From positions 73,927 to 137,926 of the forward strand of contig JAKLIO010000001.1 in NCBI GenBank assembly GCA_022709565.1: DNA of 64,000 nt. Direction: 5' to 3'. Shown here one piece after another: positions 2,925 through 61,832 of this stretch. This DNA is from Patescibacteria group bacterium (GTDB lineage: Bacteria > Patescibacteriota > Minisyncoccia > Moranbacterales > GWC2-37-73). The notes below the pieces were generated by a model. It worked only from the letters and a program-made list of their open reading frames with translations. It searched no databases and was not told where the DNA came from. How positions within the stretch are numbered: position 1 is the first letter of the stretch; each line of letters starts with the position of its first letter. A program made the position numbers and the translations under genes.

Positions 2925-5432
2925 TTAAAGATTAACTACGTCATTATTATCAAGTTTAAGAGTTCCATCATTATTGAGTTTTGAATTAACAAATTTATAT
3001 CTTTCAACACTTCCGGAAATCTTCAAGGCAACGCTTTTCCATTTTTCTGCCTCAGTTGCGTCATTATCATTTTCACACATTTCTACCATGGCAAATGCGT
3101 AAGCTGAAGATTTACTTCGCGTCTCATCGGTTACATATTTTGCGTTAAATATTTCATTTTCCAATTCGTCTTGACCTATTATTAATCCTTTATTATTTCC
3201 ATATTCTATAGAACCAAACAGCGGTCTGAAATTAGTTTGCATATCCAATCTATGATCAAAGTTTCGCCTAACTTTTTCGTTATTATCTAATTCCATTTCT
3301 TCTTCGACACTACTACCGTAAGCAGTTTTTCTTCGTTCATTACCATCCCTGTCTATTGATTTAGAAATAATATTCGTTTGTTCAGATGATTGCTGAAAAA
3401 TTTTTCCGCTAGGAAATTTTACTACATAAAGATGGCGCCTAATTTCAGTTTGGAAATTTGACAATTCACCTATACCAACAATATTATCGGCAACCGCTGG
3501 TGGTTCAACAATCGTCTCTACATAATCCCAATATTCAGTTATTACTTCTTTTGTTTCTACTTTTGCATCATCTGGTATTGGATCAAAGCCTACATATTCC
3601 TCCCCATTTACATAAGTATATTCGTTTTTTTCGGTCCAGTATTTTCCGAGTTGATTATTTTTATTGAAATATTCAGTTAGGCGCTTAGTCAATTGACCTT
3701 CTGTTTCTAACTCTTTTGCTAACATTTGTTCATGATCTGCATTTTTTTTAATTTCTTTATCTAAAATATAAGCGTTTTTTGTTTTAACTGTAGATTCAAG
3801 TTCAGCTGCCCAATCAAAGTGTGGTTTTAATTCGTAATTCTCAACATATTTATCAAATCTCTGCTTTTCATTGTCCTTCAATTCATCATCTTCCATAGTT
3901 GAAATAGACTTACGAATATCCTCGCGTGATACCTCTCGCGAATCAAATAAATATTCATCAACACTTACAGCATTTGATTCACTATCTTGTGATAATTTTT
4001 CGAGCTCCTCTCTCGGTATTTGATAAAATCGCCCCTTGCGTTCAAACAAAAGCGGATACCCAAATTGTTCATTTTCCTGCAGGAGCTTATTTAAACATTC
4101 TTTTTCAACTGGTTTATCAGTGGTAGCAAACAAAGCTCCTATCCTTGGCTCAGAAACAATAAATTCATTATAGCCACTTTGGGAATATTTTCTTTCTTCT
4201 GAGGAAAGCATTTTATTGATACCTTCTACCGTAGCAACTTCTCCCCACCCTTTTCTACTTTTGGGAGATGCGGATCTAGAATTTGCATCATCCGTTGATA
4301 TTTCCGTGCATTCACCATCTCGAAGAATAACTCCTATTGGCTGACCAGCATCTCTGCACCATGTACTGTCGAAATTGTGTGAATCTGCAAAGACAGAAGT
4401 AGAAATCGAAGGACTAAGCCCAGCAAGGGTGTTCAGCTGCTTAAGGGCTTCTTTGGATCTTTTTGAAAATGTATCACCGCTTGACACTTCAATGCCTGAG
4501 GTGCCAGTCTTATTGTTTGCATTTGAAAATCCAGTTAAAAAATGGACACATAAAGCTTTTTTGTCTTTAACTATTGAAGAGATAGAGTTAAAAGGCTTCT
4601 CCTTTTCTGATCTGCTATCGACACGTTCACTGTTGTTTTTATCGATTATACCTTTCAGTCTCTTCGCTTGATGATATGCGGGAATTGCATAATCATTTTC
4701 GTATTTTTCAGCCATTTCAACACTAGGTGTTCCCCTTTTTAATGTCTCAAAAAAATCACCTGCTCTTTTTTCAAAACCTTCAAGAACAACACCCTCTTGA
4801 ATTTCTTTTCTAGCAAAGTCAATGTCTCTTTCTTGTAACAAAGTATTCTCGTATTTTTCAAGGACTCCTGTTTTTCCAAGCTCGACAAAATCTGATTCAT
4901 GAAGCTGATATACAGGACCAATGGAACCATCCTTCATATATCCTATTCTATTCCCCTCTAAATCCCCCTGACTATTTTTTCTAATAGCATACCCGCTAAT
5001 CCTGTCTTCTGCATCTTTAGTTTTAATAATTATCGAACCTTCGAAATTATCATCTTTTGCAATTCCTACAATATTAGCTTTTTCAAAAACTTCTGATTGA
5101 TCTTTTACAGGAATTTTTTCTTTCGATTCATCTTTATTACTAATTCCCGCAACCAATTTATCTTTTGCTCCATCCGCTTCTTGATCTAATCCTTTCAGTT
5201 CTGTTTTATCATTTTCATCAATAGCCAAACCATCTTTTAAAGTTTTTTCAATGTTTACAATTCCTTCTTTCCCCGCGGCCTGAAAATCAGTCACTTCCTT
5301 TTGGGATTGAACTGTCATTTGCTCCGCCATTTTCCGTGCTAATTCTTCGGGAGATTCTTTAGTGGCAGAATCTTCTTTACTTCCCAGCGGCGCTTCAATT
5401 TCTTTTTCATTTTTTATTGTCTCATGGCTCAT
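2925..5432 (-). CDS. Large acidic hypothetical protein (835 aa). I recognise no domain.
   Basis: Long uninterrupted ORF, rich in Lys/Glu/Asp, with no signal peptide or transmembrane segment. Its start codon overlaps the stop of the upstream micro-ORF (ATGA overlap). Confidence 0.6.
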   Translation of the reverse strand: MSHETIKNEKEIEAPLGSKEDSATKESPEELARKMAEQMTVQSQKEVTDFQAAGKEGIVNIEKTLKDGLAIDENDKTELKGLDQEADGAKDKLVAGISNKDESKEKIPVKDQSEVFEKANIVGIAKDDNFEGSIIIKTKDAEDRISGYAIRKNSQGDLEGNRIGYMKDGSIGPVYQLHESDFVELGKTGVLEKYENTLLQERDIDFARKEIQEGVVLEGFEKRAGDFFETLKRGTPSVEMAEKYENDYAIPAYHQAKRLKGIIDKNNSERVDSRSEKEKPFNSISSIVKDKKALCVHFLTGFSNANNKTGTSGIEVSSGDTFSKRSKEALKQLNTLAGLSPSISTSVFADSHNFDSTWCRDAGQPIGVILRDGECTEISTDDANSRSASPKSRKGWGEVATVEGINKMLSSEERKYSQSGYNEFIVSEPRIGALFATTDKPVEKECLNKLLQENEQFGYPLLFERKGRFYQIPREELEKLSQDSESNAVSVDEYLFDSREVSREDIRKSISTMEDDELKDNEKQRFDKYVENYELKPHFDWAAELESTVKTKNAYILDKEIKKNADHEQMLAKELETEGQLTKRLTEYFNKNNQLGKYWTEKNEYTYVNGEEYVGFDPIPDDAKVETKEVITEYWDYVETIVEPPAVADNIVGIGELSNFQTEIRRHLYVVKFPSGKIFQQSSEQTNIISKSIDRDGNERRKTAYGSSVEEEMELDNNEKVRRNFDHRLDMQTNFRPLFGSIEYGNNKGLIIGQDELENEIFNAKYVTDETRSKSSAYAFAMVEMCENDNDATEAEKWKSVALKISGSVERYKFVNSKLNNDGTLKLDNNDVVNL

Positions 5433-9617: not shown

Positions 9618-10511
9618 TTAAACGTCAATAGCCTCTTTTTTTCTGTTTACAGCACGTAGCAAGCGGGTGACCGGCGCGAAGCTTTGGCGATGAATCTCGC
9701 AAGGTCCATATTTGGAAAGCGCGTCCATATGCATTTTAGTTCCATAACCTTTATGTTTGTCAAAACCATACTGCGGATATTTAGCATGCATTTCCATCAT
9801 TATTCGGTCCCGCGTCACTTTAGCAATGATGGAAGCCGCGGAAATTGATTTCACGATTTTGTCACCGCCCACCACCGCCTTTTGTTCCATGGAAAAATTT
9901 GGAATTATCTTGTTTCCATCAACTAGAATTATGTATCTCGTATCTTGTATTTGGTATTTAGTATTTTTAAATTCTTTGTCATTTTGATTTTGGAATTTAT
10001 TTGTCATTGGCAATTTGTCATTTGTCATTTCTCTTTTTAGGGAGACTACCGCTTTTTTCATCGCCAAGAAACTTGCTTCCAGAATATTGATTCGATCGAC
10101 TGTTTCATGATTGCAGAGTCCCACTCCGACATGAAAATTTTCATGAATAAAATCAAAAACCTTTTCCCGCTGTTTTTCGGAAAGTTTTTTGGAGTCTCGG
10201 ACCAACTCCCACATATTAGTATCTGGTATTTGGTATCTAGTGTTTGGTGTATTTTCTTCGGTTTGATTATTTGAACCTTGGTCATTGGTTATTGTTTGTA
10301 TCTTGTTGCTTGGTGATTGGTTATTGCGAAGGAGCACTGCTGCTGCCACTACTGGTCCGCAAAGCGGTCCGCGCCCGGCTTCATCCACTCCGATCACAGC
10401 ATCGAAGCCCTGTTCCAAGAGCTCTTTTTCTAAGTTAAATGTCGACCCCGCACTAACTTTGCGGTTTTTTGGCTTGTTTTCTTTATTGGTTGTTATTTCT
10501 TGTTTCTGCAT
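9618..10511 (-). CDS. rnhB: Ribonuclease HII, with two low-complexity insertions
   Basis: VIGVDEAGRGPLCGPVVAAAV and GGDKIVKSISAASIIAKVTRDRIM are the RNase HII hallmarks. There are Asn/Gln/Thr-rich insertions encoded by tandem nucleotide repeats at about 9975-10030 and 10205-10325. Confidence 0.85.
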   Translation of the reverse strand: MQKQEITTNKENKPKNRKVSAGSTFNLEKELLEQGFDAVIGVDEAGRGPLCGPVVAAAVLLRNNQSPSNKIQTITNDQGSNNQTEENTPNTRYQIPDTNMWELVRDSKKLSEKQREKVFDFIHENFHVGVGLCNHETVDRINILEASFLAMKKAVVSLKREMTNDKLPMTNKFQNQNDKEFKNTKYQIQDTRYIILVDGNKIIPNFSMEQKAVVGGDKIVKSISAASIIAKVTRDRIMMEMHAKYPQYGFDKHKGYGTKMHMDALSKYGPCEIHRQSFAPVTRLLRAVNRKKEAIDV

Positions 10512-23167: not shown

Positions 23168-23320
23168 AAACTATTCCTAATTTTCAATTTTCAATTTTCA
23201 ATTTTCAAACAATTATTTAATTTTTCAATTTATAAATTGCTTAAAAAATTTAGTCATTTAATCATTGGAAATTTTTTAGAAATTAGAAATTACGACTTAG
23301 AAATTACGAAATTAAAAAAT

Positions 23321-25718: not shown

Positions 25719-27230
25719 TTATTGATATGTTTCTTTAAACTCTTTAATTGCTTTTTCTAAAACTTTTATCACATCGTCGCTCAATTCTTTCTTTTCACTG
25801 ATCAATTTGACAACATCTTTTGCCTGCGCATCTAAAAATTTATGAAAATCATTTTCCCATTGTTTGATTTCTTCCACTGGCACATCATCCACAAAACCAT
25901 TTGCCAAAGCATAGAGAATTGCGACTTGATGTTCCACTGTCATCGGTTCGTATTGCCCTTGTTTCAAAATTTCTACCGTTCGGCGCCCGCGTTCAATTTG
26001 AGCCTTGGTTTTTTCATCCAAATCTGATCCGAATTGAGCAAATGCTTCGAGTTCTCTAAACTGCGCCAAATCCAATTTCAGTTTGCCGGCTACTTTTTTC
26101 ATGGCTTTAATCTGCGCGCTGGATCCCACTCGGGAAACTGAAATTCCCACATTCAATGCCGGTCTGACTCCTTTGTAGAATAAATCTGATTCCAAAAATA
26201 TCTGTCCGTCAGTGATAGAAATAACATTAGTCGGAATGTAGGCCGAAACATCTCCGGCTTGCGTTTCAATAATTGGAAGTGCTGTCATCGAGCCACCACC
26301 AAAATCTTCATTCAGTTTCGCACTCCTCTCCAGAAGGCGTGAGTGCAGATAGAAAACATCTCCAGGATAAGCTTCGCGTCCAGGTGGACGTTTCAAAATT
26401 AAAGAAATTTGTCGGTACGCCCAAGCATGACGAGAAAGATCATCAAAAACAATCAGCACGTCTTCACCTTTGTCCATGAAATATTCTCCCAACGCGCAAC
26501 CAGAATAGGGCGCAATATATGAGAGCGCCGCACTGTCTGATGCGCCGGCAATGATGATGGTTGTATATTCCATAGCGCCAGCTTTTTCCAATTCACCCAA
26601 GATGCGCGCAATTTTTGATTCTTTCTGTCCGACAGCCACATAGATGCATTTCATATTCTGTCCTTTCTGATTGATAATTGTGTCAATCGCAATCGCAGTT
26701 TTACCGGTTTGGCGGTCACCGATTATGAGTTCTCTTTGTCCGCGCCCGATTGGAATCAAAGCATCAATGGCCTTAATACCTGTTTGTACTGGCTGATTCA
26801 CGGATTTTCTAGTAATGACCCCCGGCGCAATTTTTTCCACTGGATAATATTTGTCCGTTTTAATATCTCCTTTAGCATCAACTGGAATTCCCAACGGATT
26901 AATAACTCGCCCCATCATTGCTTCAGAAACAGGAATAGAAAGAATTTTCCCGGTCGCTTTCACTTCGTCGCCTTCTTTGATGCCGATAAAATTTCCCAGC
27001 ACCATCACGCCGACTCGATCTTCTTCGAGATTAAGCGCTACTCCGATTTCGCCACCGGGAAATTCCACCATTTCCGAAGCCATGATGTCAGAAAGTCCGC
27101 TGATGCGAGCCACGCCATCACCCACTTCCACAACCTTGCCGACTTTTTCCGTCGTCACTTCGGTTTTGAAGTTTTCAATCTGTTTTTTAAGCTGTTCGAC
27201 AATAAAATCTTTGTTCATAATTTTCAGCAT
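25719..27230 (-). CDS. atpA: F1 ATP synthase alpha subunit
   Basis: [20 protein letters not shown] Walker A. 503 aa. Confidence 0.95.
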
Positions 27231-27322
27231 TCAGTATTCAGAATTCAGTATTCAGCATTTCGCTGCATATTGTACACTGTATACTGTTTCTATAAAATAA
27301 ACTTATAAAAAATTTAAACTTT

Positions 27323-28213: not shown

Positions 28214-28354
28214 GTGTCAGTAATCAGTAACCAGTAATCAGTAACCAGTAAAAACTGTACGCTGAATGCTGTATACTGCATGTTTATGTTTTATATTAAA
28301 ATATTTTCTTTTTGGCACCCCACTTAATAAAAATGAGGAGCCATAACAAAACAT

Positions 28355-37338: not shown

Positions 37339-38313
37339 TTATACCATTTTCTTTAGAAAATCTCGAACAATTTTTTCCGCCTCTTTTGTGCTCCTGGCTT
37401 CCATAAGTTTTGCCCTAAGTTCCTTAGCTCCGTCAAATCCTCTGGCATAAGTAGCGTAGTGTTTTTTAATCACATCGCGGTGCTTTACGCCTTTTAATTC
37501 CTTGGAAAATATTTTGGCATGTTCGAGCATGGCTTCCAATCTGTCTTGGAGCGGAACTTTTTCAATTTTTATTTTGCGATTGAAAAACCAGGGATTTCCC
37601 AAGACTCCGCGTCCAACCATGATGCCCTGAACTTTGGCTTTTCTGGCTTTTAAAATTCCATCTTTGATATTTTTAACATCACCATTGCCAATAATAACTA
37701 CGCCGCTGCCTTTGGCAATTTCCGCGGCTCTTGCAATCGCATCCCAATCAGCAGTGCCGACAAAGGCTTGCTTTTTAGTGCGTCCATGAATTGTGATTGC
37801 CGCCGGTTTTTCGGCTAAAATTTCCGGGAGCCATGTTTCGATTTCATTTTGGCTAAAACCGATGCGCGTTTTGATTGAAACCGGCAAATCGCCAGCGCCC
37901 TCTTTGGTCGCTCGGATAATTTCTCTGGCCCGTTTCGGATTTTTAATGAGCGCCGCTCCGGCACCCTGATCAACAACGCTTTTGTCCGGACAACCCATAT
38001 TGATGTCAATTCCGTCAAAACCCAAATCATTTGCGATTTTGGCGCATTCCCGAAAATTTTCCGGCTTAGCCCCGAAAAACTGGGCCACAATCGGATGTTC
38101 GTTTTCAAAAAAACGCAAAGTTTTCAGAAGAACTTGCCGGCCTTTCTTGTCCATGAGGCCATCTGCAGCCACAAACTCGGTAAACAAAACATCCGGCCGG
38201 CCATATTTAACCAGCATCTGCCGAGTAGCAATGTCGGTGACGTCGTGCATCGGCGCCAAAACAAAAAAAGGCTTTTTCTTCTTGGCTAATTCTCGCCAGA
38301 AATTTTTATCCAT
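37339..38313 (-). CDS. dus: tRNA-dihydrouridine synthase
   Basis: VLAPMHDVTD start, the FMN-binding TIM-barrel, and DINMGCP (catalytic Cys). Confidence 0.85.
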   Translation of the reverse strand: MDKNFWRELAKKKKPFFVLAPMHDVTDIATRQMLVKYGRPDVLFTEFVAADGLMDKKGRQVLLKTLRFFENEHPIVAQFFGAKPENFRECAKIANDLGFDGIDINMGCPDKSVVDQGAGAALIKNPKRAREIIRATKEGAGDLPVSIKTRIGFSQNEIETWLPEILAEKPAAITIHGRTKKQAFVGTADWDAIARAAEIAKGSGVVIIGNGDVKNIKDGILKARKAKVQGIMVGRGVLGNPWFFNRKIKIEKVPLQDRLEAMLEHAKIFSKELKGVKHRDVIKKHYATYARGFDGAKELRAKLMEARSTKEAEKIVRDFLKKMV

Positions 38314-38460
38314 ACCTGAATATTGTAGGCTTAATGCGTACTTTTTTCAAGAGTAATATATATTGTTAACTTTTCTTTCTAGAAAATAGCTTCTCTATTA
38401 ATTTTTCTTTCCACAATTTCAAGCATTAACTTTTCTTTCTAGGATAAGAAAAGTTAAAAA

Positions 38461-38910
38461 CCCCAGAAGCAGAGCAAAGCTCGCTACGGGGCGAGGAAAG
38501 TCGCGCCGGATGAAGATACTGATGGCAAGCGCTTCGTTCTTCACTAAAATTTGCACTTCGCTACGCTCCGTTTTAAAATTTTTTAACGCTCATCACTCGC
38601 GCTTTGCCTACGTACTTCATATAGCGCCTAAGGAATTCAAAATGCATTTCGCATTTCCCGCACCCTATGAATTTCGTAAGAAAATTCAAGCGAGTGAGCG
38701 TTAAAAATTTTCTCTGAGCCCAAAATAGAAAATTTAGCGAGCGAGCTTAGAATTTGCCACAGAAATTCATCTGGGTGCAAGTTTCTTTTCTGTCCGCTTT
38801 TCTTTTGAAAGAAAAGCGGGCGAAGATCTAAATGCGTGCACCGAAAAACATAATTTTGAATTATTTGAAATTATAAAGCAAAAAACTGCCTAAAAGGCAG
38901 CTTTTCGTAT
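38461..38910 (+). ncRNA. Candidate structured non-coding RNA in a GC-enriched intergenic island. Possibly a divergent RNase P RNA. The class is unconfirmed.
   Basis: About 450 nt with no credible ORF, clearly higher GC than the flanks, and many compensatory inverted repeats (for example AACGCTCATCACTCGCGC pairing with GCGAGTGAGCGTT). It contains GAGGAAAGUC (like RNase P CR-I) at 38493 and ACAGAAA (like CR-V) at 38759. Adjacent to these, the strands CCGGAUGAA and UUCAUCUGG could form P4. It ends in the hairpin CTGCCTAAAAGGCAG followed by TTTT. Confidence 0.3.
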
Positions 38911-38945
38911 TTTAATCCATGATACATTATACAAAATACATAATA

Positions 38946-39320
38946 TTACTCTCCTGTCGTCTGTTCCAAATTAGTCTTTTTGAAATTAACTTTCCAAATT
39001 GGTTCATAGGCATTGTCAAATTCATCTTTAACCATAACCGTTTCGCCTTTCATAAGAGTTGAAATCGCCACATCATTCATCATTTCCCTGTGCGTTTCCA
39101 CTTCCAGTTTTAAATCCTCCAGTTTTTCCCAGCTGCGTCCCAACTGCGCCTGGATGCGAGCTTCGATTTCTTTTTTCTTTTCCCGCAAGACTTTGATTTC
39201 TTCCACGATTTCTTCATATTTATCCGCCTGCACCAAAGCGTCTTTATACATATCCCTCAAATCCTTCTGCTCTTTTTTCATTTCTCTAATTTTGTTGAAA
39301 ACCTCTTGTACATTTTGCAT
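38946..39320 (-). CDS. Hypothetical coiled-coil protein
   Basis: 124 aa, highly charged with heptad character. I recognise no motif. Confidence 0.45.
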   Translation of the reverse strand: MQNVQEVFNKIREMKKEQKDLRDMYKDALVQADKYEEIVEEIKVLREKKKEIEARIQAQLGRSWEKLEDLKLEVETHREMMNDVAISTLMKGETVMVKDEFDNAYEPIWKVNFKKTNLEQTTGE

Positions 39321-55087: not shown

Positions 55088-55137
55088 TTTTGATTTATGC
55101 TCCGCGACCAGGACTCGAACCTGGAACCAATTGATTA

Positions 55138-55741
55138 CACATTATCTCTTTGTTTCCAAAAAGGGTGGACTATATCATTCCCACTCTTTTATAAAAGGGC
55201 GGGATGAGGCGCTTCCTGGGATTAAAAATCCAAGTACTCTCTTGCGAGATAGTCTCTGAACCTTCCCTAAAAGGGTTTGGCTGCTGATTACCATAATTTC
55301 TGCTGAGAAATTTTAGGCTTCCAGTCCCGATATTATCAATTTTGTAATTGAATAAAACCGAGATCCCATTTTATTGGGACAATTCACCTCATTCTTCACT
55401 TCCAAATTTCTTTGGAAGGCTGCGAATATTGTTGTGCAATTCCCTATGGCAATTCGCGCACACAAGAATACATTTGTCAATTTCATTTTTTATTCTTTCC
55501 CAACTGCGAGTTAAACCATCTTGGGAAATTGCAAAATCCTTTTTTGAAGAATCATTATGATGAAATTCTAATGCATCACTGCAACGATCATAACCACAAA
55601 GTGCACATCTACCACCTCCGTATTGAACTGCCATTTCTCGAAGTTTTCTTCGTCTTTTCGAAACAGCTTTGATCATATACTCTCGGCGGTCAGCATATTT
55701 TCGGGTTTCCTTCATATTTTTTTAAATAAAGGATGTGTACC
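55138..55741 (-). mobile_element. Group I self-splicing intron carrying an HNH homing endonuclease gene
   Basis: The intron 3' region carries the catalytic-core consensus elements R (GGTTCAGAGACTATC) and S (AATGATATAGTCC), giving P7 pairing GACUA/UAGUC, and a Q-like AATCAGCAGCCAAACCC. The intron ends in G and the 5' exon ends in U. The first 330 nt hold an HNH ORF. Confidence 0.7.
55389..55715 (-). CDS. HNH homing endonuclease (intron-encoded)
   Basis: CALCGY...LEFHHNDSSKK...N...CILVCANCHRELHN is the HNH/His-Me finger with two CxxC zinc knuckles. 108 aa. Confidence 0.85.
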   Translation of the reverse strand: MKETRKYADRREYMIKAVSKRRRKLREMAVQYGGGRCALCGYDRCSDALEFHHNDSSKKDFAISQDGLTRSWERIKNEIDKCILVCANCHRELHNNIRSLPKKFGSEE

Positions 55742-55815
55742 ACAGTCAACTGCTCTACCATTGAGCTATCGCGGAATATTAAGTTGTAAAAAATTGCTTT
55801 TTAAGGCAACAAGGG

Positions 55816-60368: not shown

Positions 60369-61832
60369 CTAAATTTTCTTTGTTTTTGCCGAATGCGTTT
60401 TCTCTTCCGCGCCTTCTTTTCCAAGTACTATAGCCACCAAATCGCCGGCAATTAATTGCCCTGCAGCTTTCTGATTTTCTATCATTTCATTGGCCACTTT
60501 TGCCAGTTCTTTTTCCTGAAAAAAGAACCCTTCCGCTCCCCAGATTAAGGACATTTGATTATACGTCTTTTCTTTATTTGTTGCAACCAGCAAGGGTTTC
60601 TCCATGCGAAAATGAGAAACCAGCCGCGCTGTAAATCCGGAAGCGCTGGCTACCGCAATAGCTTTGACATTTTTGTCTTTGGCCAGTTCGTAGGCGCTCT
60701 TAACAAAATTTTTGAAATCTTCATCATCTTTTAATTTGAGCAAATGGGTTACGTTATCATAAGGCGAGCTTTCTGTGTTCTCAATAATATCTTTCATAAT
60801 GCGCACACTTTCAACCGGATATTTTCCATTAGCCGCTTCACCGCTAAGCATGACGGCATCGACATGATCGATAACTGCGTTGGTCACATCACTGACCTCG
60901 GCGCGTGTCGGACGCGGATTTTTAATCATCGAATCTAGCATTTGCGTTGCCATGATTACTGGCTTCATTTTTTGGAGACTTTTTTCCACGATTTCTTTTT
61001 GAAAAACTCCCACCTTGCTTTCATCCATTTCAATTCCCAGATCTCCGCGCGCCACCATAACCACATCAGTGTGCTCAACAATATCATCCAGATTTTTGAT
61101 CGCTTCTTTGCGTTCGATTTTCGCCACAATTTGGGGCAAATCATTCTCGCGCTTTAGAATTTTCTTAATTTTGTCTCGTAGATTTTCAATATTCTCGCCA
61201 CTGGACACAAACGACATGGCCACAAAATCAACTTCATTTTGGAGGGAAAATTCCAAATCTTTTTCATCCTTTTCTGTAATCGGATCAATACTAAGTTTTG
61301 CATCCGGAATATTAATGCCTTTGTGATTTTTAATTGTTCCGCCGTCAATAACTTCGGCTAACAATACGCCGTCATTTTTTTCCCTGACTACAACCTTCAT
61401 TAATCCATCTTCGATCAAGATTTCATTGCCAACTTCAATGTCATCAACAATTTTATTTACATCCAGACTAAATTTTTTATCATTTGAAATTTGATCATTG
61501 GAAATTGTTTGGAAATTGGAAATTGGAAATTGGAAATTGGGGGCATAAAATATATCACTGACCAACACAAAATCGCCGGACTTAATTTCCACCTCTGACT
61601 GCACTAAAGTTCGTATCCTAGGTCCTTGCAAGTCCGCCATAATACCAATCGGCTTTTTCATTTCAGCGGAAAGTTCGCGGATGATTTTAATCACGTTGCC
61701 ATGCCATTCATAAGAGCCATGGGAAAAATTAAGCCGAGCCACGTTCATGCCCGCCTCAATCATTTCGCGGATAACCTCCCTGCTGTCCGAAACCAATCCT
61801 AGTGTTGCTACAATTTTTGTATGTTTCGCCAT
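60369..61832 (-). CDS. pyk: Pyruvate kinase with a low-complexity in-frame insertion
   Basis: MAKHTKIVATLGLVS...NVARLNFSHGS...IMADLQGPRIRT, and MVARGDLGIE. The tandem-repeat-encoded insert FQFPISNFQTISNDQISNDKKFS is at about 61478-61543. Confidence 0.9.
   Translation of the reverse strand: MAKHTKIVATLGLVSDSREVIREMIEAGMNVARLNFSHGSYEWHGNVIKIIRELSAEMKKPIGIMADLQGPRIRTLVQSEVEIKSGDFVLVSDIFYAPNFQFPISNFQTISNDQISNDKKFSLDVNKIVDDIEVGNEILIEDGLMKVVVREKNDGVLLAEVIDGGTIKNHKGINIPDAKLSIDPITEKDEKDLEFSLQNEVDFVAMSFVSSGENIENLRDKIKKILKRENDLPQIVAKIERKEAIKNLDDIVEHTDVVMVARGDLGIEMDESKVGVFQKEIVEKSLQKMKPVIMATQMLDSMIKNPRPTRAEVSDVTNAVIDHVDAVMLSGEAANGKYPVESVRIMKDIIENTESSPYDNVTHLLKLKDDEDFKNFVKSAYELAKDKNVKAIAVASASGFTARLVSHFRMEKPLLVATNKEKTYNQMSLIWGAEGFFFQEKELAKVANEMIENQKAAGQLIAGDLVAIVLGKEGAEEKTHSAKTKKI

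Follow-up and report, generated by a model that had tools for sequence, protein, structure and literature searches.

In the 64,000-nt stretch of Patescibacteria DNA analysed here (the window), the gap between dus (37339-38313, minus strand; Pfam Dus, E 3.9e-62) and an open reading frame (ORF) of 124 amino acids (38946-39320, minus strand) measures 632 nt (38314-38945) and contains an island rich in inverted repeats. We found that this island is a convergent doublet, made of two diverged, inverted copies of one dispersed repeat unit of ~190 nt. The preliminary description of the window had proposed a structured RNA, possibly a divergent RNase P RNA; conserved nucleic-acid secondary structure with abundant compensatory changes is indeed present, but the island is not one RNA gene and is not RNase P RNA. 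Alignment of the window with a related dus locus, L089, exposed the two inverted units, and nhmmer matched unit A to unit B with an E-value of 5.7e-4. Unit B converges on unit A, and their tails overlap at 38628-38660. Unit A is 89-96% identical to the A-type copies of other loci, and unit B is 89-93% identical to the B-type copies in L105, L125, L118 and L136. Across unrelated loci, A-type copies share 89-96% and B-type copies 85-93% identity, while A- and B-type copies are 73-80% identical to each other.

Each unit combines a 5′ hairpin, H1, with a second, long and irregular one in which four helices, Pa-Pd, are stacked around two internal loops. Read hairpin-first, it begins with a semi-conserved upstream stretch, (C)TTTCTTTTT..CAAAATTCATAA, followed by H1 (TTAACTTTTCTT/AAGAAAAGTTA, with CCGC.., CCAC.. 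or TTAC.. versions in other subfamilies), a purine run AAGAAAG, helix Pa (GCRCC/GGYGC) and helix Pb (ATGAAG.TAC/GTACTTCAT; B-type copies have ATGAATTTC/GAAATTCAT). The next helix, Pc, GGCAA-NNNN/NNNN-TTTGCC, carries a 4-nt box that reads GCGC, ATTC, AGAC, AAAC, ATGC, ACGC and so on, and the other side always matches. Beyond it come two internal-loop strands that are conserved and rich in pyrimidines, TTCGTTCTTCGC and TTAACGCTCATCACTC (TTCGTTCTTCAC and TTAACGCTCATCACTC in unit A), helix Pd (AAAATTT/AAATTTT, which covaries to AAATTCCT/AGGAATTT, AAATTTAT/ATAAATTT and AAAAAATCT/AGATTTTT), an apical hairpin that is variable and, last, a tail built from heptamers (RRAATRC, e.g. GAAATAC four times).

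The pairing scheme was strongly supported by compensatory changes. In a structure-blind MAFFT alignment, 92.1% of the cells are paired, as compared with 41-55% when the partners are slid; 23 of the 41 pairs have changed on both sides, and none of 500 shuffles reached the covariation score. The alignment made with the covariance model gave 94.8% paired cells versus 39-55% with slid partners, 29 of 41 pairs changed on both sides, and again 0/500 shuffles. RNAalifold, applied to the raw MAFFT alignment, returned 14 pairs only, the subfamilies being out of register; the hand-derived structure was used instead and tested on the same structure-blind alignment. Minimum free energy (MFE) folding of a single unit (L089) recovers the hand-drawn fold on either strand. 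For the whole island, MFEs are -140.5 kcal/mol on the plus strand (z -5.82) and -152.2 kcal/mol on the minus strand (z -5.70), with none of 100 dinucleotide shuffles as good in either case; the folding signal is thus of similar strength on both strands. In a transcript that runs through both units, A would pair with B, and this doublet fold is 13 kcal/mol better than two separate unit folds.

The repeat is dispersed. An exact-pattern scan for a motif shared by both units, TTTTTAACGCTCA N14-18 TACG NNN TTCAT, hit 49 metagenomic loci, the sources of which include anaerobic digesters and an aquifer. A profile hidden Markov model (nhmmer) identified 75 copies, and a covariance model, R1, built from 45 copies, recovered 74, of which 58 are distinct, at ~46 positions on Moranbacteria-like contigs. 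Units occur on each of three contigs of assembly ERZ795054, NODE_269, NODE_116 and NODE_238; because these contigs match in coverage (24.6x, 24.7x and 21.9x), one genome presumably holds several sites. A survey of 610 kb around dus in 80 other Patescibacteria species from GTDB yielded a single weak copy (L005, 38.7 bits), and the family belongs specifically to one narrow Moranbacteria-like clade within the candidate phyla radiation (CPR)/Patescibacteria. The Dus protein of the window has its best match among GTDB species representatives at 61%, in Patescibacteria metagenome-assembled genomes, and its nearest relatives in a large protein collection are from Candidatus Moranbacteria. No Rfam 15 family matched the units of the window or of six further unit-bearing loci, and we obtained no matches to the units in the viral contigs, phage records and plasmid records searched. 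Within the window, the short word TCGCTNCGCTC is not enriched, and the H1 motif does not exceed chance expectation outside this locus. The literature searched holds no account of such a repeat in Patescibacteria or Moranbacteria, and the family is apparently undescribed.

Comparison of dus loci showed rapid change at this site, with copies gained or lost between close relatives. Relatives retrieved by exact-protein look-ups comprised eight near-identical strains and a graded series. The gap upstream of dus is 632 nt with two units in the window, 304 nt with one unit in the closest relative, L089 (Dus 96% identical), 25 nt with a different upstream gene and no unit in L090 (89%), 93 nt with no unit in L091 (83%), and 258 nt of unrelated sequence with no unit in L093 (81%).

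Convergent doublets recur elsewhere, i.e. in L118, L136, L125, L094/L102, L109, L112, L138 and L139, and one divergent pair was seen, in L105. Four A-B doublets from four different loci, the window included, are homologous end to end, central junction included, and therefore the doublet itself is a repeated entity. The doublet is also where near-identical strains differ. Over 6,975 nt, L082 and the window are 99.76% identical, and all differences (~8-10 substitutions and a 9-nt indel) fall within the doublet centre, 38623-38742, the remaining ~6.8 kb being identical. The L082 variant of this centre is the junction variant of the L125 and L118 doublets, which reside at other loci; this suggests either that copies exchange sequence by gene conversion or that the centre of the palindrome is hypervariable. 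We also noted that the A unit of the L125 doublet (3279-3403, plus strand) has suffered a clean internal deletion of ~70 nt between two direct GCGCTT repeats that form Pc, consistent with slippage or recombination inside the hairpin.

Insertions occur at a fixed point within the unit as well. A GC-rich hairpin of ~35 nt lies after H1 in unit A (38459-38494) and is missing from 55 of the 58 distinct copies; its right junction creates GAGGAAAGTC (38493-38502). The only other copy with this insertion, at the same point of the unit, is at an unrelated locus, L117 (~3860-3895, minus strand), and L110 (1347-1561) has a different hairpin inserted there. The 35-nt hairpin may be a nested mini-insertion, or its site a hotspot. 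It also provides most of the 'GC enrichment' at the left end of the island. The island as a whole is higher in GC content, as proposed, but only than its immediate flanks, which are very AT-rich (0.39-0.47 versus 0.25-0.31); it is no different in this respect from the neighbouring coding DNA.

The neighbours of the units are unrelated housekeeping genes, including dus, atpH/atpA, uvrB, rpsI, ychF and those for RNase J, a DHH-family protein and a glycosyltransferase. When ORFs were called mechanically, 32 of the 43 genes flanking a unit on its H1 side were co-directional (p = 0.002), typically ending 8-120 nt before the unit. Convergent junctions account for 16 unit counts at ~11-13 sites (two of which may reflect spurious ORFs within atp operons), whereas a divergent junction was found at one site; at co-directional sites, 12 units are in sense and 9 in antisense orientation. 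The real bias is not towards one strand: units prefer 3′-3′ regions and the inside of operons, and avoid promoter regions. Likewise, wobble counts (G-U 37 versus A-C 34) reveal no strand preference. Units also fill whole intercistronic gaps, e.g. in L120 (5197-5409).

RNase P RNA is excluded for practical purposes and, transcript data aside, refuted by the criteria that came with the proposal itself. The sequence features quoted in the preliminary description are all at the island (GAGGAAAGTC at 38493, ACAGAAA at 38759, CCGGATGAA at 38506 and TTCATCTGG at 38766), and our repeat search bore out the inverted repeats, e.g. AAATTTTTTAACGCTCA/TGAGCGTTAAAAATTTT (38576-38592/38695-38711, 94% complementary) and CCGCTTTTCTTT/AAAGAAAAGCGG (38794-38805/38808-38819, 100% complementary). 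A literal GAGGAAAGUC together with ACAGAAA, a 9-bp long-range helix alongside them and a total doublet size of ~400 nt all resemble class A RNase P RNA (RF00010). Moreover, in two other Patescibacteria, L003 and L055, RNase P RNA adjoins dus, being located just downstream of it on the opposite strand. However, the Rfam 15 covariance search returned no match to the RNase P, tmRNA, 6S or SRP models at any of three stringencies (gathering threshold; E ≤ 10 on 38250-39000; E ≤ 0.05 on the whole window); the best match at E ≤ 10 on 38250-39000 was terminator-like, with 24.8 bits, and ARAGORN found no tmRNA. The search is sensitive enough, since it detected the RNase P RNAs of L055 (5411-5755, minus strand; 101.6 bits) and L003 (5054-5507, minus strand; 61.2 bits, E 9e-17). 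The L003 copy, at 61 bits, lies below the Rfam gathering score of 100, so CPR RNase P RNAs can escape default thresholds.

Both of these genuine RNase P RNAs retain GAGGAAAGUCCGG, GGUAAC, AGAUAAAUGA and ACAGAAUCCGGCUUA, whereas the island fails every defining feature that we tested and has no canonical core element beyond the bare GAGGAAAGUC and ACAGAAA. For conserved region (CR) I, GAGGAAAGUCCGG, and for helix P4, which pairs AAGUCCGG with the CCGGCUU of CR-V (ACAGAAnCCGGCUUA), the island reads GAGGAAAGUCGCGCCGG and ACAGAAAUUCAUCUGG. The conserved AAGUC would fall outside the proposed P4 helix and CCGGCUUA is missing, although L003 and L055 keep both; on reading the island sequence, the GGUAA loops and CR-IV AGAUGAAUG, which are found in L003, are missing too. 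Of the 58 distinct homologous copies, a single one carries the supposed CR-I core, GAGGAAAGTC, the GAGG of which arises at the right junction of the 35-nt insertion; 22 copies have AAAGAAAGTC, the usual sequence, at this position and the rest other variants. ACAGAAA, taken as CR-V-like, is present in 4 of the 58. As to the 'P4' strands CCGGAUGAA/UUCAUCUGG, these represent helix Pb of unit A facing the same helix of the inverted unit B: CCGGATGAA is helix Pb of unit A, and TTCATCTGG the complement of helix Pb in unit B. That these strands are complementary, and that other long-range pairings are seen as well, is an automatic result of the inverted duplication. An element in 74 copies at ~46 positions also contrasts with a single-copy essential gene, and at the orthologous site of relatives it is halved (L089) or missing (L090, L091 and L093). 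The false candidate, which is hereby removed, arose from a chance 10-mer made by an insertion and from the automatic complementarity of an inverted duplication; the case counsels caution in covariation-based discovery of non-coding RNAs in metagenomes.

Among known systems, the units are closest in logic to repetitive extragenic palindrome (REP) doublets forming hairpins (REPINs) and to bacterial interspersed mosaic elements (BIMEs), and closest in size and transcribed intergenic location to enterobacterial repetitive intergenic consensus (ERIC)-like palindromes and miniature inverted-repeat transposable elements (MITEs). REP, BIME and REPIN elements are mobilised by RAYT tyrosine transposases. 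REPs are 20-40 bp long (PMC3733652); BIMEs consist of REPs in alternating orientation (PMC2817692), and REPINs of a pair of inverted REPs separated by a spacer (PMC3337134, PMC3116915); MITEs and REPs have been reviewed together (PMC3184786). Our units share with REPs, BIMEs and REPINs that they are dispersed extragenic palindromes, that they occur both singly and as inverted doublets capable of folding into one long hairpin, that they are sited at gene 3′ ends and within operons, and that they form several subfamilies. In contrast, they are ~190 nt long, with four helices and conserved internal loops; their consensus has no GTAG/CGTC tag, no RAYT gene was detected in the DNA examined (~25 neighbouring proteins), and the doublet halves derive from different subfamilies, ~75% identical.

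ERIC/IRU and MITE-like repeats (Correia/NEMIS, RUP, BOX) are imperfect palindromes of 100-200 nt that are intergenic, usually transcribed and present in either orientation. Like these, the units are multi-copy and non-coding, vary in presence between relatives and have size variants created by insertions at fixed internal sites (the 35-nt hairpin after H1, the apical hairpin and an insertion in L101). They differ in that the sites and doublets compared yielded neither a target-site duplication nor terminal inverted repeats with defined limits, that numerous compensatory changes preserve the pairing from one subfamily to another, that every unit ends in a tail of heptamers, and that the host is a streamlined CPR bacterium. 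Lineage-specific multi-copy structured motifs without known function are familiar from comparative genomics, and the restriction to one clade, several copies per genome and a covariation-supported fold all recall them; however, the present units have no counterpart in Rfam 15, give no strand signal, form inverted doublets and show insertion polymorphism. What marks a structured non-coding RNA was found in part: conservation through compensatory change was evident, a strand-specific signal (tolerance of G-U but not of A-C) and a consistent orientation were not. Other candidates were rejected. An integron attC site (R″ RYYYAAC and R′ GTTRRRY cores at the ends of an imperfect palindrome of 57-141 nt, located after cassette ORFs) does not fit, as the paired region ends in GCGCC/GGCGC without AAC/GTT cores and the neighbours are housekeeping genes rather than cassettes. 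For box C/D or k-turn, T-box, 6S RNA and bridge RNA, judged by anatomy, either the defining motifs are missing or copy number and context are unfit.

We consider it probable that the units constitute an undescribed, non-autonomous structured repeat of the REPIN/BIME, ERIC or MITE kind, whose mobility and function we infer. Such a repeat would be propagated or homogenised via its folded single-stranded form, the agent being either an enzyme acting in trans or recombination among the copies themselves. Pairing would be selected since the folded single strand, DNA or RNA, would be the form that is recognised or propagated, and copies would be tolerated at sites where promoters stay undisturbed; co-transcribed units might form long hairpins, which could affect mRNA 3′ ends. 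Several observations weigh against this interpretation. At five to ten times the size of a REP and with conserved internal loops, the units come nearer in appearance to an RNA, or to a scaffold that binds protein, than to a simple terminal inverted repeat. No transposase, RAYT-like gene, integrase, reverse transcriptase or other candidate mobilising enzyme was found among the ~25 neighbouring proteins tested. Neither filled and empty sites nor the four doublets gave a target-site duplication or an exact boundary: the empty site in L091 is too diverged for the junction to be mapped, unit edges are fuzzy owing to the 5′ extension and the heptamer tail, and no direct repeat was seen at the edges of the four doublets. 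The per-genome copy number is an estimate from coverage-matched contigs of one assembly, with at least three sites. Folding energies slightly favour the reverse strand (alifold -16.3 versus -14.1, mean MFE -55.2 versus -47.5 kcal/mol), though this advantage is small. Finally, a unit is kept at the same atpH-atpA position in two species (L101 and L107), which could mean a host function.

The last point also belongs to a rather unlikely alternative, a cis-acting RNA module of the host, in which the co-transcribed hairpin would control stability, processing or read-through at mRNA 3′ ends and the heptamer tail would serve the start region of the next gene. The co-directional H1-side genes (32/43), the occupation of entire intercistronic gaps, the strong selection for pairing and the heptamer arrays which, elsewhere in the window, directly precede start codons and are like unit tails, all fit this idea. 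Nevertheless, the 32/43 bias is largely explained by the preference for convergent junctions, the near-equal numbers of sense and antisense units and of G-U and A-C pairs do not indicate a strand-specific RNA role, the neighbouring genes have no common function, and close relatives lack the element at the site with no obvious compensation. We regard it as improbable that the units are a multi-copy family of independently transcribed ~190-nt small RNAs (sRNAs), whose conserved internal loops would bind a protein or base-pair with targets and whose doublets would represent two sRNA genes in convergent or divergent arrangement. The RNA-like architecture of conserved unpaired loops between covarying helices, a semi-conserved CATAAT-like box directly upstream of H1 in A-type copies, and the fact that about one-quarter of the units have no co-directional upstream gene speak for it. 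Yet a promoter and terminator scan of the window and comparison of flanks revealed no consistent -35/-10 pair upstream and, whichever strand was read, no terminator beyond the unit; wobble pairs show no strand asymmetry, the upstream sequence varies between subfamilies, and dozens of paralogous sRNA genes would be unusual for a small CPR-type genome. Both the cis-acting module and the sRNA family are compatible with a selfish origin.

More speculatively, and with a low probability in our view, CPR bacteria could possess in these units a novel class of folded nucleic acid with a function, the invariant internal loops UUAACGCUCA and UUCGCUAAAAUUU, set between freely covarying helices, serving as recognition or guide modules for a putative structure-specific recombinase or RNA-binding protein, loosely like REP-RAYT systems or transposon-encoded guide RNAs. 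If true, a streamlined genome would contain a self-propagating system guided by RNA or single-stranded DNA. In general, CPR genomes are small and densely packed with genes, and a trans-acting partner, if one exists, would show how repeats spread in them. With unusually clear compensatory evolution and no strand signal, the family provides a useful test case for distinguishing selection on RNA structure from selection on palindromes at the level of DNA or single-stranded DNA.

Table. Elements of the doublet and adjacent signals in the window
Feature	Position	Strand	Sequence	Evidence
Unit A (A-type), hairpin-first	38424-38652	+		Covariance model R1, 187.4 bits, E 2.4e-35
Unit A, helix H1	38426-38457	+
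Unit A, helix Pa	38503-38507/38623-38627	+	GCGCC/AGCGC
Unit A, helix Pb	38510-38519/38612-38620	+	ATGAAG.TAC/GTACTTCAT
Unit A, helix Pc	38524-38532/38599-38608	+	GGCAAGCGC/GCGCTTTGCC
Unit A, helix Pd	38546-38552/38576-38582	+	AAAATTT/AAATTTT
GC-rich hairpin insertion (~35 nt) in unit A	38459-38494	+	CCCCAGAAGCAGAGCAAAGCTCGCTACGGGG	Copy comparison
Two extra direct copies of H1 5′ arm, upstream of unit A	38366-38414	+	TTAACTTTTCTTTCTAG (38366), TTAATTTTTCTTTCCAC (38398)	Repeat search
Unit B (B-type), hairpin-first	38637-38822	-		Covariance model R1, 133.1 bits, E 2.6e-24
Unit B, helix H1-B	38794-38819	-	CCGCTTTTCTTT/AAAGAAAAGCGG
5′ extension of B-type unit	38823-38872	-	...AAATAATTCAAAATTATGTTTTTCGGTGCACGCATTTAGATCTTCG	Alignment of four doublets, four loci
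Terminator-like hairpin and T-run	38879-38907	-	CTGCCTTTTAGGCAG	Terminator scan: 13-pair stem on minus, 6-pair stem on plus strand
Promoter-like site of dus	38322-38350	-	TTGAAA, 17 nt, TACAAT	Promoter scan, 10/12 matches

Comparison of the upstream flanks of 21 copies showed that other A-type copies have an upstream extension, (C)TTTCTTTTT..CAAAATTCATAA, similar to the extra H1 arms before unit A. On the right, the 5′ extension of unit B is common to the B unit of L125, an unrelated locus, and defines the edge of the doublet. The hairpin with T-run, quoted earlier as the end of the structured RNA, is present but lies outside the region common to the doublets and is not part of the repeat; it is bidirectional, stronger on the minus strand, and terminates the upstream 124-aa gene. 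The island, in which no plausible ORF had been noted, does contain an ORF of 64 amino acids, at 38510-38704. We rejected it as coding, since it has no Pfam match and indels and stops break its frame in other copies.

The promoter-like site of dus is likewise not part of the repeat. It ends 8 nt from the dus ATG, and the window has no Shine-Dalgarno sequence before dus; together, this suggests that the dus mRNA is nearly leaderless. In the relatives L089 and L091, TTTGTAT-type repeats were observed at the corresponding position.

Period-7 tandem repeats are found directly upstream of start codons elsewhere in the window (27223-27259, 28217-28251, 23179-23208, 23276-23318, 61509-61540, 9932-10030 and 10219-10248). 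The array before atpA reads GAAATGC TGAATAC TGAATTC TGAATAC TGAATGC TGAAAAT T ATG, and relatives have arrays of 7-8-mers in the same place (CAATNTAA four times in L107, AACTTTAT three times in L121). The tails of the units (RRAATRC) are arrays of the same kind, and such arrays, which may act as promoter, leader or protein-binding elements, look like a genome-wide trait of the lineage. In L104 (118-208), L116 and L099, the unit is followed by a conserved motif, CCGCTATGGTC(A/G)GGAGG, and then by a second heptamer run; this motif may be a further repeat module of one subfamily.

Away from the island, downstream of rpoD and dnaG, we noted a tRNA gene on the minus strand (~55099-55775) that is split by an intervening sequence of ~610 nt and was not called by ARAGORN. 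Its 5′ half, TCCGCGATAGCTCAATGGTAGAGCAGTTGACT, lies at ~55775-55744, and its 3′ half, ...AATCAATTGGTTCCAGGTTCGAGTCCTGGTCGCGGAGCA, runs to ~55099; UGU is a possible anticodon. Within the intervening sequence lie a group I intron core (RF00028, 55146-55423, 55.8 bits, E 1.8e-11) and an ORF of 108 amino acids (55389-55715) with no Pfam match.

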